Source of the DNA: Elusimicrobia bacterium GWA2_56_46
GTDB lineage: Bacteria > Elusimicrobiota > Elusimicrobia > Elusimicrobiales > UBA9959
NCBI GenBank assembly: GCA_001799575.1
Contig: MGTT01000018.1
Coordinates: forward strand, 13,404 to 77,403
Direction: 5' to 3'
Length of the DNA stretch: 64,000 bases
The notes under the pieces were generated by a model, which saw only the letters and a list, made by a program, of their open reading frames with translations, did no database searches and was not told the DNA's origin. Made by a program: the position numbers and the translations under genes. Shown here one piece after another: positions 6,714-64,000 of the stretch (position 1 is its first letter; each line of letters opens with the position of its first letter).

Positions 6714-6748
6714 GAGCTTATGGCCTAAAGCTTATGGCTTATGGCGGG
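6714..6748. repeat. Heptamer-periodic array R1
   Basis: GAGCTTA TGGCCTA AAGCTTA TGGCTTA TGGCGGG. Spans the anmK-cysK spacer and the last codons of cysK (AISHKL*). Confidence 0.7.
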
Positions 6749-7678
6749 CGCGGCGCCATCTTCAAACAGCCAGGTGCTCAGGTAACGCTCGCCGGTATCG
6801 GGCAGAATGACCACTACGGTCTTCCCGGCGGCCTCCGGCCTGGCGGCCACAAGGGCGGCGGCATGCATGGCCGCTCCGCCGGAGATGCCGGTACAGAGGC
6901 CCTCTTCGGTCATAAGACGCCTGGCCATGAGGCCCGCCTCGTCGTCCCTGACCCTGATAATTTCGTCTATGCTCTCTGTTTTGAGCACGGCCGGAACAAA
7001 ACCCGCGCCTATGCCCTGTATTTTATGCGGCCCGGCCGGGGATCCGGAAAGCACCGAAGAGGTGTACGGTTCCACGGCTATTATTTTTACGCCGGGCCTG
7101 CGCTCTTTAAGGACCTCCGAAACGCCGGTGATGGTTCCGCCGGTGCCGACCCCGGCCACAAAATAGTCCACTTTTCCGCCGGTGTCTTTCCAGATCTCCT
7201 CGGCGGTGGTCTTACGGTGGCTCTCCGGGTTGGCCGGATTTTCGAACTGCTGCGGCATGAAAGCGCCGGGATTCGCGGCCAGAAGTTCTCCGGCTTTGAT
7301 TAAGGCGCCTTTCATTCCCTCCGCGCCCGGAGTCAGAACCAGTTCTGCCCCCAGCGCTTTTAAGATCTTGCGCCGCTCGACGCTCATGGTTTCCGGCATG
7401 GTCAGCATAAGCCGGTAGCCCCGCACCGCGCAGACGAAAGCAAGCCCTATGCCGGTATTACCGCTGGTCGGCTCTATTATCAGGCTCCTTTCCTTTATAA
7501 GTCCCCTCGCGCGGGCGTCTTCCAGCATGGCGAGGGCTATGCGATCCTTGACGCTGGACATCGGGTTGAAAGATTCAAGCTTGGCCAGCACCAGGGCCCG
7601 GCCGGCGGCCGTCACGCGGTTGATCCTGACCAGCGGCGTGCCGCCTATAAGTTCCGTGACGTCGTTGGCGTATTTCAT
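6725..7678 (-). CDS. cysK: Cysteine synthase A (O-acetylserine sulfhydrylase)
   Basis: Contains [12 protein letters not shown]...[14 protein letters not shown]...[10 protein letters not shown]. The start at 7678 gives an ATGA overlap with the cysE stop. The longer ORF start at 7741 would overlap cysE by 67 nt. Confidence 0.92.
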
Positions 7679-8292
7679 GGCTTCAACCTTTTCTTCAACT
7701 CCTCCACTTCGGCGCGCAGGACTTTTATTTCCTCTCCGCAAACGTCAAAAAGTTTATTATGATCAAGCTGGGTGGTCTCCCCGGCGCCGCCCTCCCTGGG
7801 TTTGGCCGGGACGCCGAAAACCGTGGTATTCGGCGGGACATCCTTCAGCACCACCGAACCGGCGCCTATGCGCGCGTGCTCGCCTATGACAATGGCGCCC
7901 AGCACGATAGCGCCGGCCCCTATCACGGAACCGCTGCCGATGGTGGGGTGTCTTTTCTTTTTCTCAAGGCTGGTGCCGCCCAGCACCACGCCCTGGTACA
8001 TGAGCACATCGTCGCCTATCTCGGACGTCTCGCCGATCACAACGCCCATACCGTGGTCGATAAAGAACCGCCGCCCGATGACCGCGCCTGGGTGGATCTC
8101 TATGCCGGTCAGCGCCCGCCCCGCCTGTGAAAGAAGCCGCGCCGGCAGGCGCAGGCCAAGAGTCCACAACCGGTGGGAAACGCGGTGCAGCCAGACGGCG
8201 TGCAGGCCGGGATAACAGGTGAGCACTTCCGTGAAACTCCGCGCCGCGGGATCTTTCAGGAACACGTTCTTTATATCTTCCAGGATATGCAT
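7675..8292 (-). CDS. cysE: Serine O-acetyltransferase
   Basis: Hexapeptide-repeat core [44 protein letters not shown], 205 aa, upstream of cysK. Confidence 0.9.
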
Positions 8293-8364
8293 CCGCTAAA
8301 TTATATGATTTTTTTTATGTATAATTGCCCTATCACTATCACAACCTGAACGAGGTGGCATATT

Positions 8365-9309
8365 ATGAACAAGAAAGATTTTTTGAGGGTGGCCGACTAC
8401 ACCAGGGACGAAATAAAAGAGATCTTCGAGCTTACCGGCAGAATAAAAGCGCGCCAGAAAAAAGGCGACCCCGCCAGGCCGCTGGAAGGGCGCACCCTCG
8501 GCATGATCTTCCAGAAATCCTCCACGCGGACCCGCGTCTCTTTCGAAGTCGGCATGTATCAGCTGGGCGGATATCCGCTGTTCCTGAGCGCCAACGACCT
8601 CCAACTCAAGCGCGGCGAGACGATAGCCGACACCGCGCGCGTCCTCTCGCGCATGCTGGACGCCATCATGATCCGCACCTACGCCCACAGCGAGGTGGAG
8701 GAACTGGCCCGGCACGCGAGCGTGCCGGTGATCAACGGCCTTACCGATTCCCACCACCCCTGCCAGATCATGGCCGATATCTACACCGTCATGGAACATA
8801 AGAAAAACGTGAAAGGCCTGACCGTGGCCTGGGTCGGAGACGGCAACAACGTCCTCCACTCCTGGATAGAGGGCGCCCCGCTCACCGGCATGAATCTCAG
8901 AATGGCCGTCCCGCCCGGCTATGAACCGGACAAGGAAATCCTGCAATTCGGCGTGGATCTGGCCAGGAAAGAGAACACGCAGATGCTGCTGACCAACGAC
9001 CCGGTGGAAGCCGTTAAGGGCGCGGACGTCATTTATACGGATGTCTGGGTGAGCATGGGGCAGGACGCCGAGAAAGAGAAGAAGCTCCGCGATTTCAAGG
9101 GTTTCCAGATAAACGCCGGCCTTATGAAGCACGCCGCCGAAGATTACCTCTTCATGCACTGCCTGCCGGCGCACCGCGGGGAAGAGGTTTCCGCGGAGAT
9201 CATAGACGGGGAGCACTCCATCGTGTTCGACGAGGCGGAGAACCGCATGCACGTGCAGAAAGCCATACTGGCCGCGCATATGCTCAGGGGAAAAACCGTA
9301 AAAATATAG
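8365..9309 (+). CDS. argF: Ornithine carbamoyltransferase
   Basis: STRTR, HPCQ, DVWVSMG and HCLPAHRGEE motifs, 314 aa. GAGGTGG SD. Confidence 0.9.
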   Translation: MNKKDFLRVADYTRDEIKEIFELTGRIKARQKKGDPARPLEGRTLGMIFQKSSTRTRVSFEVGMYQLGGYPLFLSANDLQLKRGETIADTARVLSRMLDAIMIRTYAHSEVEELARHASVPVINGLTDSHHPCQIMADIYTVMEHKKNVKGLTVAWVGDGNNVLHSWIEGAPLTGMNLRMAVPPGYEPDKEILQFGVDLARKENTQMLLTNDPVEAVKGADVIYTDVWVSMGQDAEKEKKLRDFKGFQINAGLMKHAAEDYLFMHCLPAHRGEEVSAEIIDGEHSIVFDEAENRMHVQKAILAAHMLRGKTVKI

Positions 9310-14528: not shown

Positions 14529-15080
14529 ATGGACGAAAATATCAACGAACAGGAAGAAAAAAGGGAAATTGCAAAACGAACCGTGACGATGCAGGGCAGG
14601 GCTGTGACCCTGGCAGGAGACGAGATCAGGGTCGGAATGACGGCGCCGGATTTCAAGGTCACGGACAACGATATGCTCCCCATGAAGTTCTCCCGGACCT
14701 ACGGCGGAAAGGTCGCGGTCATCTCAGCGGTTCCGTCGCTTGACACTCCCGTCTGCGATCTGGAAACCCGCCGGTTCAACAAGGAAGCCGAAGCGCTCGG
14801 CCCGGACGTGAACGTCCTGACCATAAGCATGGATCTGCCTTTCGCCCAGAAACGCTGGTGCGGGGCCGCCGGCGTAAAAGCCGTAAAGGTATATTCGGAC
14901 TACCAGAAAGCCGATTTCGGAAAATCTTACGGGGTGCTGATAAAAGAACTGCGCCTGCTGGCGCGCGCGGTTTTTATCGTGGACAAGGACGGCATAGTCA
15001 AGTACGTCCAGCTCTGTCCCGAAGTCGCCAAAGAACCGGATTACGACGAAGTTCTGACCGCGCTCCGGGCGTTGGTATAG
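14529..15080 (+). CDS. tpx: Thiol peroxidase (Tpx-type peroxiredoxin)
   Basis: APDFKV...[21 protein letters not shown]...FAQKRWCG motif, 183 aa with a short acidic N-terminal extension. Confidence 0.88.
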
Positions 15081-15098
15081 GGGTCAGGTTAGGGAGGA
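15075..15098. repeat. Heptamer-periodic array R3 (short)
   Basis: GTATAGG GGTCAGG TTAGGGA GG. Contains the tpx stop and the dfx SD. Confidence 0.45.
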
Positions 15099-15102
15099 AA
15101 TT

Positions 15103-15483
15103 ATGGCTGAAATAAAGGAAATATACAAGTGCGACGTCTGCGGCAATATCGTGGAAGTACTGCACGGCGGGCCCGGAGTTCTCGTCTGCTGCGGGGCGGA
15201 TATGCGGCTGTTCTTTGAAAACACCACCGACGCCTCCAAAGAGAAGCATGTCCCGGTCATTGAAAAAAGCAGGACGGGGTATAAGGTGAAAGTGGGAAGC
15301 GTCCCCCACCCGATGGAAGAAAAACACTACATAGCGTGGATCGAACTTGTGGCCGACGGCAGGTCATACAGGGAGTTTCTGAAACCGGGCCAGGCGCCGG
15401 AAGCCGTATTCTGCCTGTGCTTCGAGCCTAAAGAAGTTTACGCCAGGGAATACTGCAATCTTCACGGCCTCTGGAAAGCGTAA
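15103..15483 (+). CDS. dfx: Desulfoferrodoxin (2Fe superoxide reductase)
   Basis: N-terminal desulforedoxin CDVCGN...CCG. The SOR centre is KEKHVPVI...HPMEEKHYI...CNLHGLW. 126 aa. Confidence 0.9.
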
Positions 15484-21356: not shown

Positions 21357-21364
21357 AAATTTTC

Positions 21365-21889
21365 CTAAACCCCGGACACCCTGCCCTTGCCGCGCAGTTT
21401 TTTCGCGGCGGCTTTCACCGCCTTGATCTGCTTCACGTAGCCGGTACAGCGGCAGAGGTTGCCGTCCAGATATTTTTTTATTTCTTCCTCGGACGGTTCC
21501 GGATTCACATCCAGCAGATGTTTGGATGACAGGATCATGCCGGGAATACAGAAACCGCACTGCACCGCCCCCGCCTCCACAAAAGCCTCCTGAAGCGGAT
21601 GGGGATCCCTGACCGTACCCAGACCCTCTATGGTCGTGATCGCGGCGCCGTGCGCGGTGAAAGCCGGGATCAGGCAGGCGAGCGCCGGCTTGCCGTTGAA
21701 GATCACCGTGCAGGAACCGCAGTCTCCGGTATCGCAGCCTTTTTTGGCGCCTTTATAGCCGTACCGCCGCAGGGCGTCCAGCAGAAATTCCGTATTCTTC
21801 ACGGCGAAAGTTCTTTTGGCGCCGTTGACGCCGAGACTTATCTCGAATACGCCGTTCACGGCCTCAAGCCCTGTAGTTTTTTTCTTCAT
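21365..21889 (-). CDS. (2Fe-2S)-binding small subunit (set 1)
   Basis: CDTGDCGSCTV and CGFCIPGM...LCRCTGY motifs, 174 aa. Confidence 0.9.
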   Translation of the reverse strand: MKKKTTGLEAVNGVFEISLGVNGAKRTFAVKNTEFLLDALRRYGYKGAKKGCDTGDCGSCTVIFNGKPALACLIPAFTAHGAAITTIEGLGTVRDPHPLQEAFVEAGAVQCGFCIPGMILSSKHLLDVNPEPSEEEIKKYLDGNLCRCTGYVKQIKAVKAAAKKLRGKGRVSGV

Positions 21890-21895
21890 ACTTTT

Positions 21896-21923
21896 CTCGC
21901 CTCTACCCTATACCCTTTCTTTA
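21896..21923. repeat. Heptamer-periodic array R4 (short)
   Basis: CTCGCCT CTACCCT ATACCCT TTCTTTA. Lies across the FAD#1 stop and the FeS#1 start spacer. Confidence 0.45.
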
Positions 21924-22738
21924 ATAAATCTCTTGAAAAGGCTTACGGCCACTTCCTTTTTGAATTCCCCGGCGCGTGCGGCGTCAAGATCCCGCCCTAA
22001 TTCCAGGACAGCCGCGTCTATGGAAACGGGAGCGAGTTTGGCGCCGGATAAGACGCGTTCGGCCGATTCCGCCCTGAACGGCCTGGGAGAGAGCGCGCCT
22101 ACGGCCACGCGCAGTTCTTTCACGACCCCGGCTTTCATCCATATACCCATAAAAAGCGTCAGGTACGCCTCCCAACTGGCCTCCGTTTTGGCGAATTTTT
22201 CGAACCGGCAGGCCCAGTTCCTGGTTTTACCCGGTATAATGATCTCAAGGATCAGAGAGTCCCGGCCGGGCCTGAACCTGAATTCAGGCTGATACAGCGC
22301 GGAGAACGGAATTGTCTTTACGCCCGTCTTTGTGAGTACCCTTACCTTGGCGTCCAGGCCAAGCAGTACCGCCGGGAAAATATTGAAAGAATGCGGCCTG
22401 GCGATATTGCCGCCGATAGTGGCCATATTCCGTATAAGCTGGCTGGAGCAGCGGGCCGCCGCGGCGGAAATAACTCCGCCGGCCCAGCGCTTCGCCAGCT
22501 TTGAATTGTCTATCGCGTCAAAGGTCGCCGTCGCGCCGATGACCAGATCGCCGCCCCGTTTTTTAACATAACCCAGCGGCAGATTCTTCAGATCCACGAA
22601 ATTCTCCACCGTTTCGGGCAAAGTCTTAGCCGCAAGGGTTCCCCCGGCCACGGCCATGGCTTCGGTTTTGCGGTTGAGCAGCCCGGCCAAAGCCGCCCCG
22701 GGCGTTTCAGGAAAACTGTAATATTTTATATGGTTCAT
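21908..22738 (-). CDS. FAD-binding medium subunit, CO dehydrogenase flavoprotein-like (set 1)
   Basis: 276 aa with AGGT..., IRNMATIGGNIA, and a C-terminal CO-dehydrogenase flavoprotein-like region. Confidence 0.85.
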   Translation of the reverse strand: MNHIKYYSFPETPGAALAGLLNRKTEAMAVAGGTLAAKTLPETVENFVDLKNLPLGYVKKRGGDLVIGATATFDAIDNSKLAKRWAGGVISAAAARCSSQLIRNMATIGGNIARPHSFNIFPAVLLGLDAKVRVLTKTGVKTIPFSALYQPEFRFRPGRDSLILEIIIPGKTRNWACRFEKFAKTEASWEAYLTLFMGIWMKAGVVKELRVAVGALSPRPFRAESAERVLSGAKLAPVSIDAAVLELGRDLDAARAGEFKKEVAVSLFKRFIKERV

Positions 22739-22740
22739 CT

Positions 22741-22785
22741 CTCTCCTTACTTCCCTGCCTCCTTATCCCCTTTACCCTCCCCAAA
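22741..22785. repeat. C-tract heptamer-like array R5
   Basis: CTCCTTA CTTCCCT GCCTCCT TATCCCC TTTACCC TCCCC. Encodes the PmbA-like C-terminus GEGKGDKEAGK* and the SD of FAD#1. The mRNA strand is G-tract rich. Confidence 0.5.
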
Positions 22786-24510
22786 GTACGGGTGCGGCAG
22801 ATATGGCAGCCGGTCCGGTTTCTGCTCCGTTTTTTTAAGTTCCATTTCCTGTACCAGGATGGACGGAGTGATAATAGCCGCGGGCACATCAGCGCGATTG
22901 TAGAACAAAGGGCCTGACTGATAAAAATTATGAACGTAGTAATCGTCCGAAGTCAAAACGATATCGCGCAAAGCCCTGAAACTTACGCCGTCAAATTCCA
23001 CCCCGTTGATCAGCTCCTCGGCGCCGTCTTTGACATAGGCCTTGTAAACCAGCATGGGTTTGGCCATGAGATCCTCCAGCCGTTTTGAACCCCCGCCGGC
23101 CATGCGCCGCACTATTATCGCGTACTCAAGCCCGAGCTCTTTCGCCATAGCCAGTAATTTTTTCTTCAGTTCTTCTTTCGGCGCCGTTTTTTCGGACAGA
23201 ATGAACACATTTCCCGGCCGCGCCGAAAAGAACTCGTCATAAGCGCCCCGGCCGTGCCCGTTGGAGGTTTTAAACTGTTTGACGGGAGCGCGGGACATAT
23301 AAAAATTGGCAAGTCTGCCGTTCTTCACAAGTTCCAGTTTCCCGGGCCGCACGCCCTCGTTGTCTATTTTATAAGAACCGTAGAGCGCCGCGCCGCCGGA
23401 TTGCGTTTGAAGCGGGTCGTCATAAACGCTGAGGAAAGGCGCCATGACGCGCATTCCAAGTTTATCCGTCAGGGCGCCGGAATCCACGTACCACTTCCTG
23501 GACTCATCGTTATCAGCCCAGATCGTCCTGACGAAAGAAATATTTTCCACGAACAGTTGATTGAAAAACTCGGCCGCGGCCTGGTCTTCGAACAGGACGG
23601 GGCCCAGATAGACCCCGGCGGTGGAAGAATCCACCAGATAGCTCATCCGCCCGGCGAATTCCTCGGTCCTGGCGGCAAGAATATCGAAACCTGGCACGGC
23701 GCCGGGCAACTGATAATTGAATTCCATTTCATCGTTTATTTTAAGGCCTTCCCTGGTCTGCGCGCCGGCGGAAATGGTAAGAGAAAGCGCGTCCCCGTAT
23801 ACCCGGTACCTGGAACCTTCGCTGTTAATAAAGCGGTTGACCCGCAGAGTATGATTCAGATTTACATCCGAGTTTTGTATCTTGGGATATTTTCTGAAAA
23901 CAGCCGATAGGCGCCTTACGGTTTCTTCCCACACGGACGTCTCGAAAGCCCCGGTAGCGACGCGATCCTCAATAAGCGCTTCAGGCTTTTCCACGGAAAG
24001 ATCGCCGTAGATTTCCTTGATGCCTTTTTTTTCCATATACGCTTTTTTCTGGGAATATTTTTCAAGCGCGGCTTTATAAGCCTGGTCGGTGAGCGACCAG
24101 AGCGAGAAACGCAGGGCGTTGTAATCGTCCTCCACCGGGATGTTGGCGGAAAAAGGTTTATAAGCCTGGAAATCGCTCCCGGCATAATTGGTATTATCCA
24201 GCTCCCGGCTGCCTATCCTGACGTCGGCCGCCAGCTCCCTTGAGGCATAAATAGTTTTACGGAGGATGGCCCCAAACGAAGCCGAGATATAAGTATTGGT
24301 TGAATCCACTACATAATAGGCGGCGTAATACGGCTTGGCCAGATCGTCCATTTTAAGCCTGGCCATGGAGCGCCCCAGTTCGTCATCCATGGCCTTAAGC
24401 ACCTGGTCGTCGGCAGCGTAAGCGGAAAGGATAAAGGATGAGGGATGAAGGATGAGACAAAACATGATAAAAATCCGAAACCCGCACATTTTTTTCATAA
24501 ATATCACCAT
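22747..24510 (-). CDS. Exported TldE/PmbA-like protein (metal site degenerate)
   Basis: TldD/PmbA-family fold by similarity to the neighbouring gene. The position equivalent to HExxxH reads FFNQLFVEN. Hydrophobic signal peptide ending SAYA|AD. Start is ambiguous (24522, 24510 or 24498); 24510 has the best SD spacing. Confidence 0.7.
   Translation of the reverse strand: MVIFMKKMCGFRIFIMFCLILHPSSFILSAYAADDQVLKAMDDELGRSMARLKMDDLAKPYYAAYYVVDSTNTYISASFGAILRKTIYASRELAADVRIGSRELDNTNYAGSDFQAYKPFSANIPVEDDYNALRFSLWSLTDQAYKAALEKYSQKKAYMEKKGIKEIYGDLSVEKPEALIEDRVATGAFETSVWEETVRRLSAVFRKYPKIQNSDVNLNHTLRVNRFINSEGSRYRVYGDALSLTISAGAQTREGLKINDEMEFNYQLPGAVPGFDILAARTEEFAGRMSYLVDSSTAGVYLGPVLFEDQAAAEFFNQLFVENISFVRTIWADNDESRKWYVDSGALTDKLGMRVMAPFLSVYDDPLQTQSGGAALYGSYKIDNEGVRPGKLELVKNGRLANFYMSRAPVKQFKTSNGHGRGAYDEFFSARPGNVFILSEKTAPKEELKKKLLAMAKELGLEYAIIVRRMAGGGSKRLEDLMAKPMLVYKAYVKDGAEELINGVEFDGVSFRALRDIVLTSDDYYVHNFYQSGPLFYNRADVPAAIITPSILVQEMELKKTEQKPDRLPYLPHPYFGEGKGDKEAGK
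24424..24458. repeat. Heptamer-periodic array R6
   Basis: GGAAAGG ATAAAGG ATGAGGG ATGAAGG ATGAGAC. Lies inside the signal-peptide coding region of the PmbA-like gene (LILHPSSFILS). Confidence 0.7.
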
Positions 24511-24512
24511 AA

Positions 24513-24540
24513 CATCCCTCATCCTTCAGTTCACTTATCC
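24513..24540. repeat. Heptamer-periodic array R7, inverted relative to R6
   Basis: CATCCCT CATCCTT CAGTTCA CTTATCC. 24513-24526 is the exact reverse complement of 24434-24447 (14 bp). Confidence 0.7.
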
Positions 24541-27076: not shown

Positions 27077-27089
27077 AATCAGAACGCTT

Positions 27090-27134
27090 TAAGCCATAAG
27101 CCGTAGGCCATACTGGCGCCCGTATGGCCTATAG
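27090..27134. repeat. Heptamer-periodic array R2 with internal 10-bp hairpin
   Basis: TAAGCCA TAAGCCG TAGGCCA TACTGGC GCCCGTA TGGCCTA TAGCAAT. The stem pairs 27104-27113 with 27122-27131. Lies in the spacer between FeS#2 and FAD#2. Confidence 0.7.
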
Positions 27135-27614: not shown

Positions 27615-27617
27615 GGG

Positions 27618-28934: not shown

Positions 28935-28965
28935 TTTTATCTCCTCCTGCCCAATACCGCCAAAT

Positions 28966-31260
28966 TCAGCTCTTCTTGCCGTTCAAACCGTTCCAGACTT
29001 TCTCCGGCAGCAAAGGCACTGTCCTCACCCGCGCGCCGGAGGCGTTCATTATCGCGTTGCCCACGGCCGGGGCCACGCCTATCAAAGGGACTTCTCCTAT
29101 GCCTTTGGCCTTGTACGGGCCCCCGGCATAGGGTTTCTCTATGAATGTTATATCATATTCGGGTTTGTCAGCGGTAGTGGCCAGCACGTAATCGGTGAAA
29201 TTGGGGTTAAGCATGATCCCGTTTTTGTACGCCAGATTTTCGTAAAGCGCCCAGCTCATCCCCTGCAGCAGCCCGCCCTGGGCCTGGCCTTCCGCAAGCC
29301 CCGGATTGATGATCCTGCCCGCGTCGTAGGCGGCGTAAATCTTAAGAACTTTCGTCACGCCGGTCTTAAGATCCACCTCCACATCGGCCACGTCGGCGGA
29401 GTAAGAATAAGTGACATAGGCATCGCCCTGGCCGTCGCCCATATCATAGGAAGTGCGGGGCGCGACATACCAGCCCTGTTCGCCCATTTTCATACGGCGG
29501 TTCCAGCACTCCTTCACCGTTTCGGCGAAAGTCACCGAAACTTCGCCTATGGAAAACAGCCCCTCGGCCGCTCTCATGGGCCCGGAGCCGTCCGCGCCTT
29601 TGGCGAGCAGCAGCTCGAAAGCCGTCTTAAAGATATTGTCCCGCATCGGAGCGGCGGCTTCTATAATGGCGTTGCCGCTCATAAGCGTGGTGCGGCTGGC
29701 GACGGTGGGACCGGAATCAGAAACCTTGGAAGTATCCACTTCTTCCAGCTTTATGTTTTCGTAAGGGGCGTTCAGGGTCTCGGCGCAGATCTGACTCAGC
29801 ACGGTCAGGGCGCCCTGGCCCATCTCGGTATTACCGACATTCACCCCCACGGTGGCGTCCTTGTAAATGTTCACATAAGCGCCTGCGCGGTCAAGATACC
29901 GGCCCTTGGCGCCCAGCCCTACCCCGTAATACGCCACGGACACTCCCAGTCCCCTCGCAATCTCCCCTTTATCCTTTATCCTTAAGCCTTTAGCCTTCCT
30001 TCTGTCCCAATTCGATCTTTTTTTCACGGTTTCGAGAAGTTTCTCCAGGCCGCAGGAAGCGCCGATAATCTGGCCGGTGGCGGTCTTGTCTCCGGGGCGC
30101 AGGATATTCTTGAGGCGCAGCCGGACGGGATCCATTTCCAGCTTGTGCGCCAGTTCGTCCACCAGGGATTCCTGGGCAAAGCAGATCTGCGGCTGGCCGA
30201 AGCCCCTGAAAGCTCCGCAGGGCACTTTATTGGTGGCCGCGGCATAGGCCTCTATGCGGATATTTTCGATCCGGTATGGCCCGGCCGCGTGCACGGCTCC
30301 GCGCCACAGGACTATAGGCGAAAGCGTGGCGTAGGCGCCCCCGTCCAGAACGTACTTGACCACGCAGGCCGTGATCTTCCCGTCCCTGTCCGCCGCGTAG
30401 GCAACTCTGGACCAGGACGGATGGCGTTTGGACATGGAGTTGAAATCTTCTTTGCGGTCATAGATAAGCCTGACCGGTCTGCCGACCTTGAGCGCGCAGA
30501 CAGAGGCGTGAGAGGCCACCAGGGCCGGGACGTCTTCTTTGCCGCCGAAGCCGCCGCCGGTCACGGTCTGGATGACTTTCACTTTGTGATAACCAAGATC
30601 CGCCGCGGCCGCCACGGCATCCAGCACATAGAACGGACACTGGGTCGAACTGTAGACGGTCAGCCCGCCGTCCGGTTCCGGCACGGCCGTCACGCCCTGG
30701 GTTTCCAGATAAGCGTGTACCTGGTAGTTGGTCGAGAATTCCTCTTCCACCACCACGTGGGCGTCCCTTATGGCTTGATCCGGGTTACCTTTCTTAATGA
30801 CAAATTTAGCGAAAACATTATCGTCCCCGTGGAGTTTTACGGCGTTTTTTTCCAGCGCTCTCAGGGGATCGTCCAGAAAAGGAAGTTCTTTATACTTTAT
30901 CTCCACCAGGCGCGCGGCGGCAACTGCGGCTTTCCGGGTTTCAGCCACCACAAGGGCGATCGTTTCCCCCTGGAACCTCGCTTCGGTCTCCGGCAGAAAA
31001 GGGTAGTCGCTCGACACAAGCGGCCATTTATTGGGGCCTTTCACGTCCTTGTATGTGACCAAAGTCACATAGCCGGGGACTTTTTCGGCTTTGGCGGCGG
31101 AGATTGAGAGGATCTTTATGCGGGGTTTGGGGCAGCGGACGGCGGCGGCGTAAAGCAGGCCGGCGAAGTCCTGGTCGGCCGCGTATCTGGCCCGGCCCGT
31201 CGCCTTTATGAAAGCGTCTTTCCTGGGCAGCGACTTTCCCACGAATGAAAACTTGTCCAT
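28966..31260 (-). CDS. Xanthine dehydrogenase family molybdopterin-binding large subunit (set 2)
   Basis: 764 aa, MDKFSFVGKSLPRKDAFIKATGRARYAAD..., with GGGFGGKED and the XDH/aldehyde oxidase pattern. Confidence 0.88.
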   Translation of the reverse strand: MDKFSFVGKSLPRKDAFIKATGRARYAADQDFAGLLYAAAVRCPKPRIKILSISAAKAEKVPGYVTLVTYKDVKGPNKWPLVSSDYPFLPETEARFQGETIALVVAETRKAAVAAARLVEIKYKELPFLDDPLRALEKNAVKLHGDDNVFAKFVIKKGNPDQAIRDAHVVVEEEFSTNYQVHAYLETQGVTAVPEPDGGLTVYSSTQCPFYVLDAVAAAADLGYHKVKVIQTVTGGGFGGKEDVPALVASHASVCALKVGRPVRLIYDRKEDFNSMSKRHPSWSRVAYAADRDGKITACVVKYVLDGGAYATLSPIVLWRGAVHAAGPYRIENIRIEAYAAATNKVPCGAFRGFGQPQICFAQESLVDELAHKLEMDPVRLRLKNILRPGDKTATGQIIGASCGLEKLLETVKKRSNWDRRKAKGLRIKDKGEIARGLGVSVAYYGVGLGAKGRYLDRAGAYVNIYKDATVGVNVGNTEMGQGALTVLSQICAETLNAPYENIKLEEVDTSKVSDSGPTVASRTTLMSGNAIIEAAAPMRDNIFKTAFELLLAKGADGSGPMRAAEGLFSIGEVSVTFAETVKECWNRRMKMGEQGWYVAPRTSYDMGDGQGDAYVTYSYSADVADVEVDLKTGVTKVLKIYAAYDAGRIINPGLAEGQAQGGLLQGMSWALYENLAYKNGIMLNPNFTDYVLATTADKPEYDITFIEKPYAGGPYKAKGIGEVPLIGVAPAVGNAIMNASGARVRTVPLLPEKVWNGLNGKKS
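29964..30000. repeat. Heptamer-periodic array R8 inside the Mo subunit #2 CDS
   Basis: ATCCTTT ATCCTTA AGCCTTT AGCCTTC (29971-29998). Encodes RKAKGLRIKDKGE in frame. Same unit family as R9. Confidence 0.65.
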
Positions 31261-31266
31261 CAGTTC

Positions 31267-31315
31267 TGACCTTTATCCTTTAGCCTTTGGCCTTAAGCCT
31301 TTCCCCTCACCCTCA
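31267..31315. repeat. Heptamer-periodic array R9
   Basis: TGACCTT TATCCTT TAGCCTT TGGCCTT AAGCCTT TCCCCTC ACCCTCA. Spans the xdhC C-terminus (HMRVRGKA*) and the spacer before Mo#2. Confidence 0.75.
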
Positions 31316-32707: not shown

Positions 32708-33394
32708 TCAGCGGTCGCCAGCAGGCAGCCGCGAGTATTCCTCCGGGGTATCGAAATCGCGGATAATGCCGCCGTCTTCCACGGTCAGATCCGCGGGCGT
32801 CACCGATGGATGATGCGTAACCCAGTGCAGCCCCTTCCCGGCCGGGCCGTCAAAGCAGAGCTGAAAATAGCGACGGGGAATAATTATCGGGTGGCCGCGT
32901 TTAAAAAAAAGGGTAGAGGGTAGAGGGTGGAGGGTAGAGTTATCGGAATTCTGACCTGTGACTTGTGACCTGTGACTTGTGACCCACGGCTGCCCCGCTT
33001 CGCGTCTGCACCTGGGGATGACAAGGAAATCTTTGTGTAAACGCCAAAAGCCAGCTATCAATTTATAGGTTTCCGGCTTTATAAGCGGCTGATCTACCAG
33101 GCAGATCATTGCGGCTTCGGCTTCCGGGCCGGCCATTTTAAGGCCGGCCCTTACCGAGGCTATCTGGCCCAGTTCGGGCGTCCCGTTAAAGGCGATCTTC
33201 TCTTCCTTTGGCCGCCAGGCCGCCAGGACCTCCGCGCGGTTGGCGCCAAGCACAACGATAGTTTCCCCGGCCCCGGCGGCCTTTGCGCCGGCAAGCGCCG
33301 TCCCAAGGAAAGTCGCGCCCTTATATTCCAACAGGGCTTTTGTCCGCCCCATGCGGCTGGAATCACCCGCCGCAAGTATAATAGCAGAAATCAT
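32708..33394 (-). CDS. mocA: MobA-like NTP transferase, probable molybdenum cofactor cytidylyltransferase, carrying an in-frame repeat-derived insertion
   Basis: N-terminus MISAIILAAGDSSRMGRTKALL and the later KRGHPIIIP motif. Residues about 135-170 (WVTSHRSQVTGQNSDNSTLHPLPSTLFF) are encoded by the heptamer array at 32911-32987. Confidence 0.75.
   Translation of the reverse strand: MISAIILAAGDSSRMGRTKALLEYKGATFLGTALAGAKAAGAGETIVVLGANRAEVLAAWRPKEEKIAFNGTPELGQIASVRAGLKMAGPEAEAAMICLVDQPLIKPETYKLIAGFWRLHKDFLVIPRCRREAGQPWVTSHRSQVTGQNSDNSTLHPLPSTLFFKRGHPIIIPRRYFQLCFDGPAGKGLHWVTHHPSVTPADLTVEDGGIIRDFDTPEEYSRLPAGDR
32911..32987. repeat. Heptamer-periodic array R10 (11 units) inside mocA
   Basis: GGGTAGA GGGTAGA GGGTGGA GGGTAGA GTTATCG GAATTCT GACCTGT GACTTGT GACCTGT GACTTGT GACCCAC, preceded by A8. 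Confidence 0.85.
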
Positions 33395-38818: not shown

Positions 38819-38819
38819 T

Positions 38820-40750: not shown

Positions 40751-40778
40751 ACCCTCTACCCTGAACCCTATACCCTAT
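40751..40778. repeat. Heptamer-periodic array R11
   Basis: ACCCTCT ACCCTGA ACCCTAT ACCCTAT, the complement of the GGGTAGA family. Lies at the right edge of the R-M island. Confidence 0.7.
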
Positions 40779-40904
40779 ATTTCCGCCGTGGCCCGAAAGG
40801 CCTATGACAAAGACGGCAGAAAAACAATGGAATGGGCCGGATGGCCCTTGGTAAGCCCAGCCACATGGGGTAAACTTTGGAAGCGGAGATACCGGTTCCA
40901 ACTC

Positions 40905-41870: not shown

Positions 41871-41880
41871 AGCGGCCGCG

Positions 41881-51577: not shown

Positions 51578-51590
51578 AATCCCTCCTTGC

Positions 51591-51660
51591 AGGATTCCGG
51601 ATTTAAGATTGCCGGAATGTCTCTTAATTTTGAATCTTCAATCCGCAATCCGGAATCGTT
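51591..51660. repeat. Heptamer-periodic array R14 (10 units) in the radC divergent spacer
   Basis: ...AATTTTG AATCTTC AATCCGC AATCCGG AATCGTT. A 10-bp inverted repeat pairs ATTCCGGATT (51594-51603) with AATCCGGAAT (51647-51656). Confidence 0.7.
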
Positions 51661-51721
51661 TTCCCCATATAGTATAGATGACGACCCCGACAGCGTACTG
51701 TCGCGCAACTTTTCGTATAAT

Positions 51722-52811: not shown

Positions 52812-53306
52812 ATGAAGAGAGTCATGATAGTTGCGGTTATGATGACTATTTCGGATGCTTCTTATGCTGCCGGGAGTGCCAGAAGCCAGCTTTCAGGCCT
52901 ATCGGCTGATATTTCTGTTAACGTACCGGCCGAGGTTAACACTACAAAGCAGATTTTCAAAACCAAGCTCCCCCCTACTACTGTCCGGGAATGCGCGGAA
53001 CAGATACAGGTGCTTTCCAGGCAACTGGACGCCGTCACCGATCATGCCCAGGCCAGTGCCATTCTGACTGAGATGGGGAGAATTGATTCTTTACTGCAGG
53101 AACTAAACCGGCCATCCTCTGCTTTGCCACCGTACAATCCTAACCCTGCCACTGTCCGGGAATGCGTGGAGCAGATACAGGTGCTTTCCAGGCAACTGGA
53201 CGCCGTCACCGATCATGCCCAGGCCAGTGCCATTCTGACTGAGATGGGGAGAATTAATTCTTTACTGCAGGAACTAAACCGGGCATACATGGATAATTCC
53301 TTGTAA
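52812..53306 (+). CDS. Small exported protein with two near-identical 44-aa helical repeats
   Basis: GAGGAGGG SD and signal peptide MKRVMIVAVMMTISDASYA. The segment TVRECxEQIQVLSRQLDAVTDHAQASAILTEMGRIxSLLQELNR occurs twice. Confidence 0.65.
   Translation: MKRVMIVAVMMTISDASYAAGSARSQLSGLSADISVNVPAEVNTTKQIFKTKLPPTTVRECAEQIQVLSRQLDAVTDHAQASAILTEMGRIDSLLQELNRPSSALPPYNPNPATVRECVEQIQVLSRQLDAVTDHAQASAILTEMGRINSLLQELNRAYMDNSL
52980..53282 (+). repeat. Two 132-bp direct repeats (3 mismatches) separated by 39 bp inside the CDS at 52812-53306
   Basis: 52980-53111 and 53151-53282, period 171 bp. Confidence 0.85.
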
Positions 53307-59687: not shown

Positions 59688-60167
59688 ATGAAGAAAATAA
59701 TTACAAGTTTGATATTTTTGGCATCTTCGGTAGTTTTTGCGAGGGCCGGAGGAGACGCTTCGAACCAGTTGGGGTTAGTTGCCCAGCTTAACCCGTCAGT
59801 TCCTACACCCGCGCCGGCTTTAGTTATCTCCCAGCCGCACGAATTTACGAGGATGTCTTCAGTGCTTCTTCCCTCGGAGACGCATTCAAGCGACTGGTAC
59901 GTACTTACGGAATCCGGATACCTCAGCAAGAACGGTAAAAGTCTCGGCTATACCGGCCAAGGCAGCCTCGCCGTCGATAGGGACAACTGGTACGTACTTA
60001 CGGAATCCGGATACCTCAGCAGGAACGGCAAAAGTCTCGGCTATACCGGCCAAGGCAGCCTCGCCGTCGATGGGGACAACTGGTACGTACTTACGGAATC
60101 CGGATACCTCAGCAGGAACGATAAAAGTCTCGGCTATACCGGCAAAGGCAGCCTCGCCGTCGACTAA
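59688..60167 (+). CDS. Small exported protein with three tandem 31-aa repeats
   Basis: GGGAGG SD and signal peptide MKKIITSLIFLASSVVFARA. The unit (D)NWYVLTESGYLSRNGKSLGYTGQGSLAVD occurs three times, encoded by 3 x 93 bp near-identical DNA. Confidence 0.7.
   Translation: MKKIITSLIFLASSVVFARAGGDASNQLGLVAQLNPSVPTPAPALVISQPHEFTRMSSVLLPSETHSSDWYVLTESGYLSKNGKSLGYTGQGSLAVDRDNWYVLTESGYLSRNGKSLGYTGQGSLAVDGDNWYVLTESGYLSRNDKSLGYTGKGSLAVD
59893..60167 (+). repeat. 3 x 93-bp tandem repeat inside the CDS at 59688-60167
   Basis: Units start at 59893, 59986 and 60079, with about 3 mismatches between neighbouring units. Confidence 0.9.
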
Positions 60168-62198: not shown

Positions 62199-62299
62199 AG
62201 GTCAGCGGATAGGGGTCAGGGGATAGGGTAGAGGGTTTAGGGTAAAAACAGAAGATATAGATAACTCCACCCTAAACCCTTTCCCCTATACCCTTCCCT
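62199..62299. repeat. Paired G-rich/C-rich heptamer arrays R12 forming an imperfect long hairpin between recR and comEC
   Basis: GGTCAGC GGATAGG GGTCAGG GGATAGG GTAGAGG GTTTAGG GT ... CCCTAAA CCCTTTC CCCTATA CCCTTCC. The perfect 11-bp core pairs 62233-62243 with 62269-62279. Confidence 0.8.
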
Positions 62300-62892
62300 T
62301 ACACTTTTGTTCTCCCTTTCAGGGCGTGGCCTAAGGTCACTTCATCCATGTAGTCTATATCGCCGCCCAGCGGCACGCCGCAGGCGATGCGCGTGATCCC
62401 GGCCACGTAATCCTTTAAAAGCCCGGTGAGATAGATGGCGGTGGTCTCGCCTTCGGTGTCGGGATTGGTGGCGATTATCAGCTCGGTCACCGCGCCGTCG
62501 GCCCGGCGAACCCGCTCGACAAGTTCCTTAAGTTTGAGGCCCTCGGAATTGATACCGTCCATCGGAGAAATTACGCCGTGCAGGACGTGGTAGACGCCGT
62601 TGAAAGTTTTGGCTTTCTCTATGGCCGCCACATCCTGCGTCTGGGACACCACGCAGATAACGAACCGGTCCCTCGAATGATCCGAACAGATCTCGCAGAG
62701 CTCGCCATCCGCGTAGTTGCAGCATTCCCGGCAGTAACCGACCGAATTTTTCACCCCTCTCAGCGCCTCAACCAGCTCTTCTATCTGAATGGCCGGGGTT
62801 TTGACGACGTAAAGGGCGAAGCGTTCCGCCTGCTTGGGGCCGACCCCGGGAAACCGCCTGAAAAGGGTGATGACTTTGTCCAGGGCTTTCAT
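62299..62892 (-). CDS. recR: Recombination protein RecR
   Basis: Contains LFRRFPGVGPKQAERFA, zinc finger CRECCNYADGELCEIC, and Toprim VCVVSQTQDV. 197 aa. ATGA overlap with the dnaX stop. Confidence 0.93.
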   Translation of the reverse strand: MKALDKVITLFRRFPGVGPKQAERFALYVVKTPAIQIEELVEALRGVKNSVGYCRECCNYADGELCEICSDHSRDRFVICVVSQTQDVAAIEKAKTFNGVYHVLHGVISPMDGINSEGLKLKELVERVRRADGAVTELIIATNPDTEGETTAIYLTGLLKDYVAGITRIACGVPLGGDIDYMDEVTLGHALKGRTKV

Positions 62893-64000
62893 TTGATCTT
62901 CTGGATCCTGGTTATGCGGCCGTGGAAAACCTTATTCAGGTGTTTAAGTTCGGACTCTTCCTCCGGCGCGTTCCGCCCGCCGGCGTCTTCCCATTTGAGC
63001 TCGGCGGCCTGGCCGGGCCCCGGAACTTCCGCCGGCTGAGGTATCGCTCCGGGAGCAAGCCCCGCGTCGGAGTACGCATCAGGCTCATCCGCGTCCTGCT
63101 CCAGGACTTCCGCCGTTTCCAACGGCTGCTCCGCGTCCTTATCCGGCGCTGAAGCGGTCCCGGCGTTTTTGTTATGCTCCACCGTCAGGCCTATCCTGCG
63201 TCCGGCCGCGCGCTCAAGAATTTCTTCAAGTTCCTTACCGGCCTTTTCTATGATACCGGCTTCGAACTCATTGGCGGCGGCGAGCTTCCAGGTGTTTTCA
63301 TGGTCAAAGGAGACCCTGACTGAAAGGAGGATATTATAAAGCATGGGTTTTTTGACGGAAACCGCGCCAAGCAGGCGTTTCCAGAGCGCGGAAGAGGGGA
63401 GAACGGCGAGGGATGAGGGATGAGGGATGAGGGATGAGGGGTTAAGGGTCAGGGCAGATTTTTCATTTTTTTTTTGCTGGCCGGCTGAATCCGGAGCGGG
63501 CCAGGCTGCGTCCGGGGCCGGGGCGCCGGAAGCGAGGCGGCTTTCAAGCGCTTCGAGCCTTTTTACCAGGGCGTCCAGATCCTGCGGCGTTTCGATCAGG
63601 GTAAAAAGGGCTATCTCCGCGGCCAGGGCCGGGGAATCGGAAAATTTAACCTCGTCTATGACGGCGTTGAGCTTCCTGGAAAGCCGAGCCAGGGCAAGCG
63701 GGGAACAGTCCTTTTCCAGAACCGCCGACAGCGCCGTCGGGACTTTTGAGAATCCCTGGAGATGGAGAAAGGTCTCGGAAAGCGTGTTGCGCAGATCCCG
63801 CAGGATCGTTATGGGATCATAACCTTCCCTGGAAATCTTCTCAAAACCGGCGTAAAGGGCGGCCGCGTCCCTTTTGACGAGCGCAAGAGCCGCGTCCCTT
63901 ATCAGGTCGGGGCCGGCGTGGCCCAGAAGCTCGTTCAGAACGTCCAATTCCACCGAACCCTTGCCGAATGAAGCGGCGCGGTCAAGCAGCGTCAGGGCGT
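62889..64000 (-). CDS. dnaX: DNA polymerase III subunit tau/gamma, C-terminal part (N-terminus outside window)
   Basis: The frame stays open to position 64000 (ALTLLDRAASFGKGSVELDVLNELLGH...), covering domain III then a low-complexity linker and the C-terminal region. The track start at 63953 is an internal GTG. Confidence 0.85.
   Translation of the reverse strand, partial: ALTLLDRAASFGKGSVELDVLNELLGHAGPDLIRDAALALVKRDAAALYAGFEKISREGYDPITILRDLRNTLSETFLHLQGFSKVPTALSAVLEKDCSPLALARLSRKLNAVIDEVKFSDSPALAAEIALFTLIETPQDLDALVKRLEALESRLASGAPAPDAAWPAPDSAGQQKKNEKSALTLNPSSLIPHPSSLAVLPSSALWKRLLGAVSVKKPMLYNILLSVRVSFDHENTWKLAAANEFEAGIIEKAGKELEEILERAAGRRIGLTVEHNKNAGTASAPDKDAEQPLETAEVLEQDADEPDAYSDAGLAPGAIPQPAEVPGPGQAAELKWEDAGGRNAPEEESELKHLNKVFHGRITRIQKIK
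63408..63456. repeat. Heptamer-periodic array R13 inside dnaX
   Basis: GAGGGAT x4, then GAGGGGT TAAGGGT CAGGGCA. Encodes ...LTLNPSSLIPHPSSLAV... in frame, 10 nt downstream (on the mRNA) of the A10 run. Confidence 0.85.
63466..63475 (-). promoter_or_regulatory. A10 slippery run inside dnaX (candidate tau/gamma recoding site)
   Basis: The minus strand reads CAG CAA AAA AAA AAT GAA AAA TCT GCC CTG ACC. The -1 frame hits TGA immediately after the run, and the +1 frame hits TGA five codons later. Confidence 0.45.

Follow-up and report, generated by a model that had tools for sequence, protein, structure and literature searches.

Dispersed arrays of degenerate tandem heptamers at gene junctions and inside genes of a groundwater Elusimicrobia genome

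A groundwater Elusimicrobia genome assembled from a metagenome carries real, lineage-specific arrays of tandem heptamers, which we analyzed in a stretch of 64,000 nucleotides, referred to here as the window. An earlier note had described them as a dispersed family of degenerate heptamer arrays that is not coding-derived, occurs in both orientations, and lies at gene boundaries as well as, in frame, within ORFs; this core reading is supported. The arrays belong to a kind of repeat that has already been described and whose origin has no explanation yet. On balance we lean, with moderate confidence, toward a lineage-specific population of slippage-type heptanucleotide SSRs that is filtered by selection, of the same kind as the STRR, Xanthomonas, Geobacter and Beggiatoaceae arrays. 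Stop codons, ribosome-binding purine tracts and mRNA hairpins are best read as secondary roles of these arrays.

Detection of heptamer arrays

Period 7 accounted for 12 of the 39 rows reported for the window by Tandem Repeats Finder (TRF), with 2.1-4.9 copies (at least 3.3 copies in 9 of the 12) and 73-100% matches. Together with a lag-7 scan, these rows identify tandem head-to-tail 7-nt units in at least 3 copies, as in heptanucleotide long SSRs. The near-perfect copies of STRR-like repeats are not the rule, as most arrays show 73-92% matches and only that at 63408-63440 is perfect, over 4.7 units (TRF). In the lag scan, segments of 21 nt were scored for self-matches. At the strictest cut-off (at least 17 of 21), lag 7 gave 8 regions, with 0-2 at each of the other lags from 4 to 15 and 3 at the harmonic lag 14. 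The earlier note had made its case depend on a genome-wide excess of period-7 signal over dinucleotide-shuffled controls, and such an excess is present in the window. Compared with 30 dinucleotide-preserving shuffles of the window, lag 7 gave 8 regions versus 0.13 at a cut-off of at least 16 of 21, 13 versus a mean of 0.83 (maximum 3; other lags 0-8) at 15 of 21, and 16 versus 3.3 at 14 of 21. Heptamers are over-represented against both other unit lengths and chance, as is typical of heptanucleotide SSRs.

Two of the 13 lag-7 regions were dropped, 2841-2870 as GC-rich noise and 41568-41595 as a chance match of two copies; the other 11 remain as solid arrays. Inclusion of 21891-21918, the partner arms 24513-24527, 51592-51621 and 62265-62298, and the weak relic at 15075-15100 leads to about 13-16 arrays over 57 kb, with few unit families per genome, a dispersal like that of heptanucleotide SSRs (Table 1). 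The "14 or more" loci first claimed is a fair count, and the eight repeat examples originally quoted all match the letters of the window. Assembly errors do not explain the arrays: in six independent assemblies (Logan SRR6483123 and SRR3309152; ENA ERZ28564140, ERZ27254730 and ERZ909593; JGI 3300025011), the sequence over those of the arrays at 24417, 27082, 29956 and 31260 that each one spans agrees with the window at 99.9-100% identity.

Table 1. Heptamer arrays of the window and their genetic context
Position	Strand	Form	Units	Context
6714..6746	.	single array	sense (-) CATAAGC CATAAGC TTTAGGC CATAAGC	last codons and TAG stop (6725-6727) of cysK (6725-7741); fills spacer before anmK (start 6700)
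15075..15100	+	weak relic, ~3 units	TATAGGG GTCAGGT TAGGGAG	between AhpC-like gene and dfx (15103-15483); upstream TAG stop and GGGAGG ribosome-binding site
21891..21918	.	single array	sense (-) AAAGGGT ATAGGGT AGAGGCG AGAAAAG	TAG stop (21908-21910) of FAD subunit 21908-22738; ribosome-binding site of Fer2 gene (start 21889)
24418..24459	.	3' arm of inverted pair	sense (-) CATCCTT CATCCCT CATCCTT TATCCTT	translated within signal peptide (LILHPSSFILS) of PmbA/TldD-like gene, likely start 24498
24513..24527	.	5' arm paired with 24418..24459	sense GAAGGATGAGGGATG	just past stop (24531-24533) of upstream PmbA-like gene
27084..27113	.	single array	sense GTATGGC CTACGGC TTATGGC TTAAAGC	spacer between Fer2 stop (27129) and FAD subunit start (27076)
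29958..30000	-	in-frame array	AAGGCTA AAGGCTT AAGGATA AAGGATA AAGGGGA	variable loop DRRKAKGLRIKDKGE of Mo subunit 28966-31260
31264..31307	-	single array	AAGGCTT AAGGCCA AAGGCTA AAGGATA AAGGTCA	directly after conserved xdhC sequence CATATGAGGGTG; xdhC tail and stop (31293-31295)
32910..32939	-	in-frame array	sense (CTACCCT)x4	mocA (32708-33394), encoding STLHPLPSTLF
32952..32986	-	in-frame array	sense (GTCACAR)x4.7	mocA, encoding WVTSHRSQVTGQ
40751..40779	.	single array	ACCCTCT ACCCTGA ACCCTAT ACCCTAT	~75 nt upstream of HTH-hsdM start (40676)
51592..51660	.	inverted pair	GGATTCC GGATTTA AGATTGC ... AATCTTC AATCCGC AATCCGG AATCG	upstream of radC ribosome-binding site and start (51577)
62207..62246	.	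3' arm	sense C-rich ACCCTAA ACCCTCT ACCCTAT CCCCTGA CCCCTAT	recR-comEC spacer
62265..62298	.	5' arm	sense G-rich TAAGGGA AGGGTAT AGGGGAA AGGGTTT AGGGT	begins at recR stop
63397..63455	-	in-frame array	sense (CATCCCT)x4 and degenerate units	dnaX, encoding SALTLNPSSLIPHPSSLAV; insertion between conserved QKKNEK and LPSSALWKRLLG

Arrays at gene junctions

Within spacers, the stop-containing, purine-rich orientation of the arrays provides an upstream stop codon together with ribosome-binding-like AAGG or GAGG tracts. The array at 31264, for example, places purine-rich ribosome-binding-like units ahead of the Mo-subunit start (31260); in orthologues without the array, the xdhC tail consists of 4-5 codons and is followed by a spacer of ~10 nt. 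The array at 27084 is the reverse-complement family of that at 6714, and at 40751 the G-rich strand is the sense strand of the downstream gene. The earlier proposal that arrays supply the ends of reading frames stands: the stops of cysK, xdhC and the FAD subunit 21908-22738 lie inside arrays, and the UGA stop of the PmbA-like gene 24531-26219 is found a few bases upstream of the 24513-24527 arm, on its side of the predicted hairpin. The supply of SD sequences, also proposed, holds weakly for dfx, where the relic falls below the statistical threshold, and is poor for the FAD gene 26216-27076, where an SD-like motif is lacking; it is good for the Mo subunit and the Fer2 gene.

Inverted pairs

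Several of the spacer arrays have an inverted-pair or hairpin form that was overlooked in the earlier note. In polycistronic mRNA, inverted pairs are predicted to form imperfect hairpins whose arms measure 30-45 nt. Four of the six pairs folded had z-scores of -3.9 to -5.1 and the other two -2.5 and -1.15, versus -0.2 to +2.1 for three single arrays. The predicted hairpin of the 24418/24513 pair contains a start codon (dG -48.5 kcal/mol, z -4.9), and the 62207/62265 pair has a predicted fold of -48.1 kcal/mol (z -3.9); the hairpin predicted upstream of radC is weak (z -1.15). The intergenic imperfect palindrome that forms a hairpin, characteristic of REP/REPIN elements, is found only among the inverted pairs, in the four with the lowest z-scores. 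Such hairpins may influence mRNA stability or translation.

Arrays within coding regions

The earlier note had placed arrays in frame in three genes and a signal peptide, and all of these were verified: the genes are mocA, dnaX and the Mo subunit 28966-31260, and the signal peptide is that of the PmbA-like gene. Arrays in ORFs are translated in all three phases and yield low-complexity peptides with a 7-residue period; no species examined has a coding array out of frame. The loop of the Mo subunit is 3-7 residues shorter in array-free orthologues. The mocA insert, flanked on each side by a half that aligns to PDB 2WE9, measures ~5 residues in array-free genomes versus 20-70 in array-bearing ones, and the RNA of the whole composite mocA array is unstructured (z +2.1). 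The insert in dnaX is missing in L026, the closest relative. The mocA array at 32910..32939 also has G-quadruplex potential on its complementary strand.

Only stop-free orientations, or units mutated to lose in-frame stops, persist in ORFs. A stop codon occurs in the consensus unit of 4 of 19 interior and 13 of 25 junction arrays, against 31% of random heptamers. The Mo-loop exceptions examined, those of the window and of L002, have changes such as AAGGCTG to AAGGCTT, by which the stop stays out of frame. Survival of arrays is limited to places where 20-60 extra bases are harmless, namely spacers with co-directional genes on both sides, the terminal codons of genes, one signal peptide, and linkers or variable loops at protein surfaces. 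The arrays had been characterized as "drifting"; their degeneracy is borne out and can be explained in part, as the variant units in ORFs are those that remove in-frame stops, and those in spacers retain a 4-5-nt core while the remaining positions vary.

Distribution among relatives

Repeat families of the window are also found in related Elusimicrobia. The loci fetched with the Mo subunit (17 from Elusimicrobia and one outgroup, 310 kb) contained 39 lag-7 regions versus 0-12 at non-harmonic lags, and 650 kb of recR loci from unrelated bacteria contained no lag-7 regions. Arrays are absent or only short in the near relatives L013, L014, L026 and L027. Orthologous sites in other species hold unrelated heptamers, or 8-mers; a high birth rate combined with few tolerant sites would yield unrelated units at the same sites. 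L014, although ~90% identical to L001, holds 8-mers or non-homologous sequence wherever L001 has an array in a spacer, a difference that suggests replacement rather than drift.

The same units recur at unlinked loci. Within one genome, 21% of unit pairs from unlinked loci are within one mismatch of each other; the share is 9.3% for pairs from different genomes and 2.3-2.7% for 7-mers drawn at random from the genomes (permutation p = 0.003), so that within-genome recurrence is ~8 times that of random 7-mers. The flanks of recurring copies, when compared, shared nothing. L006 carries GGGAATC, as in Xanthomonas; L007 has, at 9045-9078, an array (ATTCTGA CTCCTGA ATTCTGA CTTCTGA) that fits the MTYCTGA of Geobacter exactly; and GGGTAGA and GTCACAA occur in unrelated viral contigs as well.

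Comparison with known repeats

Cyanobacterial STRRs, named in the earlier note as the nearest precedent, have the consensus units CCCCAGT, TTGGTCA and CAACAGT, none of which is among the array consensus units found here. As in Calothrix and Nostoc, the arrays are dispersed families of tandem heptamers, several per genome, mostly non-coding and of unexplained origin. They are not STRRs in the strict sense, the host being a member of the Elusimicrobiota rather than a cyanobacterium, and descriptions of STRRs give near-perfect, often longer arrays. Kinship with STRRs holds, but they are neither the sole nor the nearest precedent; parallels in Xanthomonas/Nostoc, Geobacter and Beggiatoaceae are closer.

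That heptanucleotides are in excess among the long SSRs of bacteria has been described before (Mrazek 2007, as summarised in PMC4692102 and PMC4679880). The GGGAATC arrays of Xanthomonas and GGGGAYT arrays of Nostoc lie between aligned ORFs, either alone or paired in inverted orientation, at positions conserved among related genomes although variable in length and sequence (Rehm et al. 2015, PMC4692102). The Elusimicrobia arrays resemble these in their 7-nt units with a preference for about four copies, in their single and inverted-pair forms between aligned ORFs, in sites that related genomes have in common while array length and sequence vary, in their dispersal mostly between co-directional ORFs near stop or start codons, and in having no link to surface or virulence genes. 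They differ in having many unit families, most without G-tracts, in being more degenerate, in that several are translated in frame within enzymes, and in that one site holds unrelated units in different species.

Geobacter metallireducens has GGGACCG x4 at 49 intergenic and intragenic sites, as well as MTYCTGA x5 (Aklujkar et al. 2009, PMC2700814). These too are elements of four to five units between and within genes, but every family there keeps to a single tight consensus and has been annotated as a putative binding site or regulatory RNA, whereas the Elusimicrobia families grade into one another. In marine Beggiatoaceae, TAACTGA arrays are located ahead of start codons and extend over stop codons (MacGregor 2015, PMC4679880). 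With 2-6 copies, they share with the present arrays the placement directly before start codons and over upstream stops, the restriction of the stop-containing orientation to gene ends, and occasional in-frame copies at protein peripheries. TAACTGA is, however, a single unit with a strong orientation bias, in contrast to the many units and both orientations seen here.

REP/REPIN elements are intergenic, hairpin-forming dispersed repeats, and Rickettsia palindromic elements are in-frame insertions in loops of conserved proteins; both are unitary palindromes of 20-150 nt, and REPs are tied to RAYT transposases. The Elusimicrobia arrays likewise include intergenic hairpin-forming dispersed repeats and in-frame copies in loops of conserved proteins, but they are tandem heptamers.

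Origin of the arrays

According to the slippage reading that we favor, replication slippage or template switching in a 7-nt register would produce short tandem duplications, which would grow to ~4-5 units and later decay through point substitution; inverted pairs could arise by template switching onto the opposite strand. The arrays of the present population are not hypermutable switches. Several observations argue against slippage. Unit sharing at unlinked loci counts against it because local slippage should give each locus its own unit, and the identical units in distant taxa and unrelated viral contigs, as well as the replacement pattern in L014, are further points against it. Pure slippage does not account for the preference for ~4-5 units, even in units without G-tracts, and we know of no biochemical reason for a 7-nt register.

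It is also conceivable, if rather unlikely, that the arrays are miniature self-propagating repeats, resembling REP/REPIN, Rickettsia palindromic elements and cyanobacterial small dispersed repeats, whose trans-acting machinery would set the 7- or 8-nt register and copy genome-preferred units to new loci, in frame into genes included. The within-genome sharing of units, far above compositional expectation, is consistent with such copying, as are the few sites repeatedly taken by unrelated units, the identical units in unrelated contigs, the REPIN-like architecture of the inverted pairs, and the complete replacement of arrays between L001 and L014, which includes a switch to a dispersed 8-mer family. 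The copies nevertheless share no conserved flanks or terminal motifs and show no clear target-site duplications; among 50 window ORFs, Pfam scans revealed no transposase, RAYT (IS200/IS605-like) transposase or reverse transcriptase; and the identity of the six assemblies at the arrays gives no sign of current activity.

We consider it improbable that the arrays are cis-regulatory sites at which a single-strand RNA- or DNA-binding protein of the cold-shock, S1 or CsrA type reads a 4-5-nt core every 7 nt and thereby controls translation or mRNA fate of the downstream gene. Many arrays do hold a core and vary the rest (AAGG-NNN, ACCCT-NN, CAGG-NNN, CCACT-NN), mismatches are somewhat concentrated in columns (sum of squares 645 vs 603 +/- 18), and start codons follow the arrays within tens of bases. 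Nostoc heptamer repeats altered reporter expression (bioRxiv 10.1101/2022.06.06.494920), and an equal proposal has been made for TAACTGA arrays (PMC4679880). However, families occur in both orientations and within coding loops, and orthologous sites of close relatives have unrelated units or nothing, which argues against conserved gene-specific regulation. Spacers favor the purine-rich sense strand by about 10 to 2-3 (counted by eye, with no formal test), a bias predicted equally by stop-codon constraints.

Selection for four G-tracts, as in G-quadruplex elements like the GGGNATC arrays of Xanthomonas and Nostoc, is a still more doubtful explanation. At least four tracts of G3+ with variable loops are present in the window arrays at 32911, 40752, 62212, 62277 and 63410, and in L006, where the unit is GGGAATC itself; arrays contain 5 of the 10 canonical quadruplex motifs of the window, for which shuffles give 3.8 +/- 2.0. 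Such tracts are lacking in the other ~8 arrays, and most arrays (AAGGCTA, GTCACAA, CATAAGC, GATTGAA, GTGCAAA) cannot form three-tetrad quadruplexes, although they equal the others in length, location and dispersal.

Phase-variable contingency loci, in which copy-number change toggles genes, are suggested by SSRs near start codons and inside ORFs with a unit that is not a multiple of 3, but are very improbable, given the near-identity of the arrays in six assemblies (consensus assemblies, in which minor variants are invisible), the degenerate units, which suppress slippage, the conserved frame of all coding arrays, and the involvement of housekeeping enzymes rather than surface, virulence or restriction genes, the hosts being cysK, xdhC, mocA, xanthine-dehydrogenase-family subunits, dnaX and the recR-comEC spacer.

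Detection of heptamer arrays

Every array example quoted in the earlier note was recovered at its coordinates on re-reading the sequence, and the period-7 signal was in large excess over dinucleotide-shuffled controls. In a lag scan of the window, which scores 21-nt segments with at least 17 positions matching the base p nt downstream, eight regions were found at p = 7, three at its harmonic p = 14, and 0-2 at the remaining values of p within 4-15. At a lag-7 threshold of >=15/21, 13 regions were observed against a mean of 0.83 (maximum 3) in 30 dinucleotide-preserving shuffles of the window; the corresponding figures were 8 against 0.13 at >=16/21 and 16 against 3.3 at >=14/21. This comparison rules out a chance origin of the arrays. 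Two of the 13 regions were discarded (see table), and the addition of 21891-21918, three partner arms and a weak relic 5' of dfx brings the window total to about 13-16 arrays. Tandem Repeats Finder gave period-7 rows in 12 of 39 cases, and the same arrays also yielded period-14 and period-21 rows. All strong arrays lie in minus-strand gene blocks (~62% of the window), a plus-strand block holding only the weak dfx relic; GC skew is negative throughout the window.

We are highly confident in classing the arrays as heptanucleotide simple-sequence repeats of the STRR (cyanobacterial heptanucleotide tandem repeat) or long-SSR kind. The kinship with STRR drawn in the earlier note thus stands, but STRR are not the sole precedent and closer ones exist. 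Cyanobacterial heptamer arrays have been on record since 1990, with Xanthomonas, Geobacter, Beggiatoaceae and others added later. The phenomenon is thus already described elsewhere; for Elusimicrobia, full-text literature searches turned up no earlier account.

The earlier note had also raised the possibility of assembly artefacts. Six other assemblies from different runs and projects (Logan SRR6483123 and SRR3309152; ENA ERZ28564140, ERZ27254730 and ERZ909593; JGI 3300025011) match the window at 99.9-100% identity over the arrays at 24417, 27082, 29956 and 31260, whichever each covers, so the arrays are not assembly artefacts. At the consensus level, no copy-number or strain-level polymorphism was seen across the six in the arrays that each covers. 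Longer heptamer arrays apparently break short-read assemblies, as in the metagenome contig L028, which starts inside one, and array counts from metagenome-assembled genomes are therefore probably underestimates.

Features of the window and of related loci (positions without prefix are window positions)
Position	Feature	Remarks
2841-2870	Lag-7 region (>=15/21)	Discarded as an array: GC-rich noise
19035-31260	Two paralogous xanthine-dehydrogenase-family clusters (FAD, 2Fe-2S, Mo subunits)	Either side of the PmbA/TldD-like pair
21891-21918	Array	
21908-22738	FAD subunit gene	Stop inside array
22747-26219	PmbA/TldD-like gene pair	Missing in L001, L013; found in L002
24412-24550	Inverted pair	Predicted hairpin, dG -48.5 kcal/mol, z -4.9; start codon enclosed
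24531-26219	PmbA-like gene	Stop a few bases upstream of the 24513-27 arm
27618-28934	CsgG/FlgO-like lipoprotein gene	Within the second xanthine-dehydrogenase-family cluster
28966-31260	Mo subunit gene	Variable loop encoded by array
33372-41911	8.5-kb island	YgjP-like, type I restriction hsdR and hsdS, DUF1016/YhcG nuclease and HTH-fused hsdM genes, and a 399-residue ORF without Pfam match; ~56 nt instead in L001; also absent from L002, L013
41568-41595	Lag-7 region (>=15/21)	Discarded as an array: two-copy match
51578-51665	Inverted pair	Predicted z -1.15
52973-53286	Tandem repeat, 171 nt x 1.8 copies, 95% matches	Unrelated to heptamers
59893-60163	Tandem repeat, 93 nt x 2.9 copies, 96% matches	Within ORF 59688-60167; unrelated to heptamers
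62199-62310	Inverted pair	Predicted hairpin, dG -48.1 kcal/mol, z -3.9
63463-63476 (- strand)	Ten-A run, then TGA in -1 frame, in dnaX (CAAAAAAAAAATGAAAAA)	Kept in window, L026, L027, L028
L001 6966-7021, 7292-7323, 21470-21498; L014 6397-6451, 9924-9957	Dispersed 8-nt family AGCAAGAC / AGTACGAC / AGCGCGGC	
L022 2320-2361	Independent assembly of the region; replaces window 28418-28476	~58 nt of the CsgG-like gene swapped for ~40 nt, gene called as two pieces; could be strain variant or scaffold gap
L028 1-67	(AGGGATG)x8 or more	

Array sites in genes and spacers

Pfam annotation of the window ORFs and comparison with orthologues (L001 and other loci, fetched from relatives) show the arrays to be confined to tolerant positions. 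At the 3' end of xdhC the array directly follows the conserved CATATGAGGGTG, with AAGGCTA-type units in the window, AAAGCGG in L001, GTCACAA in L004 and L007, and the 8-mer AGCGCGGC in L014; L003, which is without the conserved xdhC end, has GAGGGAT x6 directly 5' of the Mo-subunit start. In array-free genomes the xdhC stop falls 4-5 codons further on and is followed by a spacer of ~10 nt. Units in the Mo-subunit loop are AAGGCTG in L002 and L004 (degenerate in L001), GTGCAAA in L003 and AATCGGG in L006; L014 retains just a similar peptide, the L016 peptide is closely similar to that of L003, and the loop is 3-7 residues shorter in array-free orthologues.

Two arrays in mocA form an in-frame insert between the conserved VIPRCRR and KRGHPIIIP; SQVTGQNSDNSTLHPLPSTLF is a predicted MocA peptide. 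This insert measures ~5 residues in array-free genomes against 20-70 in array-bearing ones; the halves of MocA align to PDB 2WE9, relative to which the insert amounts to about 35 extra residues. A composite of GTCACAA and CTACCCT is common to the window and L004 and more diverged in L007 and L016, and the site holds 8-mers in L001 and L014. The dnaX array (predicted DnaX peptide LNPSSLIPHPSSL) encodes 19 residues between QKKNEK and LPSSALWKRLLG, which are joined straight to one another in L026, the closest relative. Part of a signal peptide, MKKMCGFRIFIMFCLILHPSSFILSAYA, is encoded by a further array. The genes cysK, xdhC and that of the FAD subunit 21908-22738 end inside arrays, whereas the PmbA-like gene ends just outside one (see table). 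The arrays put unexpected low-complexity inserts into conserved enzymes and move predicted gene ends.

Distribution among genomes

For the Mo-subunit gene, the nearest relatives at species level all come from metagenome-assembled genomes of Elusimicrobia (up to 85% amino-acid identity). Among 18 Mo-subunit loci (17 Elusimicrobia and one Peptococcaceae outgroup, 310 kb), 39 lag-7 regions were found against 0-12 at non-harmonic lags. No lag-7 region was found in 67 recR loci of unrelated bacteria (650 kb), which gave signal only at the codon-multiple lags 6, 9, 12 and 15. Occurrence within Elusimicrobia is patchy: 10 arrays were counted in the 22 kb of L001 and ~13 in the 64 kb of the window, no arrays were found in L005, L008, L013 and L017, and L026 and L027, the nearest relatives at recR, gave no lag-7 region above threshold.

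L014 has 8-mers only, 7-mer arrays being absent, although it is ~90% identical to and collinear with L001. Each spacer array of L001 coincides with a break in the L014 alignment or a locally unalignable stretch, where L014 has non-homologous sequence or 8-mers. The 8-nt family in these two genomes fills the loop of mocA and the 3' end of xdhC, the exact 7-mer sites of other genomes. Worth recording are this 7-to-8-nt contrast between ~90% identical genomes, the repeated in-frame presence of arrays in the same enzyme loops, and the replacement of one unit by another at fixed sites.

When units are compared over rotation and strand, 21% of pairs from unlinked loci of the same genome differ by at most one mismatch; pairs from different genomes do so in 9.3% of cases, and random genomic 7-mers in 2.3-2.7% (permutation p = 0.003). 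No shared flanks were found for copies of the same family. Some units match those of other phyla (GGGAATC in L006, MTYCTGA in L007), and a few unrelated viral contigs contain GGGTAGA and GTCACAA in arrays some four units long. Among 2.9 million viral contigs, only 3 and 7, differing in GC content, matched exact 21-22-nt arrays of two families; the units thus recur elsewhere, but the matches do not bear on origin, and a viral or mobile source was not adopted. L111, an unrelated IMG/VR viral contig (7.7 kb, 38% GC), carries five lag-7 arrays, among them GGGTAGA / CTACCTT as an inverted pair, and heptamer-array-rich genomes therefore exist well outside Elusimicrobia.

Orientation and predicted RNA structure

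An in-frame array of at least three heptamers is translated in all three phases. In accord with this, the consensus unit includes a stop codon in just 4 of the 19 interior coding arrays; junction arrays have one in 13 of 25 cases, and random heptamers in 31%. In the Mo-loop exceptions inspected (window and L002), variant units prevent the stop from falling in frame; L002, for instance, has AAGGCTT in place of AAGGCTG. This constraint accounts for the C-rich sense orientation of GTCACAA, CTACCCT and CATCCCT inside ORFs, and for the placement of their G-rich, stop-containing complements and of AAGG-type units at gene ends, where both also supply ribosome-binding-like tracts. Mismatches are modestly concentrated by unit column (sum of squares 645 vs 603 +/- 18; invariant columns 125 vs 117 +/- 4.8), which is only suggestive of a core-plus-variable unit structure in a test diluted by flanking units.

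Single arrays are predicted to be unstructured as RNA (z -0.2 to +2.1, three cases tested). Several spacer arrays are inverted pairs with both arms from one unit family, the same two types as in the Xanthomonas heptamers (Rehm et al.). Four of six pairs tested are predicted to form long imperfect hairpins; the window pairs are tabulated, and the L001 pairs gave predicted z of -4.3 to -5.1 (three pairs) and -2.5 (a fourth). Most hairpins are not followed by a T-run, as judged by eye, which speaks against a terminator function. An Rfam scan of the whole window gave no family at the gathering score; arrays and hairpins are thus not a described RNA.

Origin of the arrays

We lean towards an origin by slippage or template switching. 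Arrays would arise and grow in a 7-nt register, as hypothesized by Mrazek et al. (relayed in passages of PMC4692102 and PMC4679880); strong selection would remove all but those that lie at tolerant sites and in orientations compatible with stop codons; and survivors may secondarily provide stop codons, ribosome-binding tracts or mRNA hairpins. Slippage does not explain the within-genome sharing of units, the unrelated flanks, the cross-phylum units, the viral recurrences, the L001/L014 differences or the mild column concentration.

Because genomes share units internally and the same sites are hit again and again, active copying is the main alternative, albeit an unlikely one. Here a lineage-specific micro-repeat system with a trans-acting factor would fix the register (7 nt for the majority of these genomes, 8 nt for a family in the L001/L014 lineage) and would seed new loci, with no need for homologous flanks, with arrays of a few units preferred by the genome, striking the same tolerant protein loops repeatedly and in frame. 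Such a system, if real, would offer a concrete and comparatively tractable mechanism for bacterial heptamer repeats, a puzzle now 35 years old. That a larger mobile element surrounds the arrays was rejected, same-family flanks being unrelated and no clear target duplication being seen between filled and empty dnaX sites. That the arrays are protein-binding sites is improbable, as orthologous sites of close relatives carry unrelated units or none. G-quadruplex formation is less probable still, and was discarded as a unifying property because it fits only a sub-family (5 of about 13 arrays). Phase variation is very improbable given the near-identity of the six assemblies and the stop-codon pattern.

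This clade provides useful natural contrasts for weighing slippage against active spreading: genomes at 80-90% identity with many arrays or with none, a lineage with 8-mers at 7-mer sites, and three enzyme loops with repeatedly gained, translated arrays.

The ten-A run of dnaX resembles a slippery site that may yield the short gamma form of DnaX, via frameshifting or transcriptional slippage. The heptamer array begins ~10 nt downstream of this run, where the tau-only part starts.
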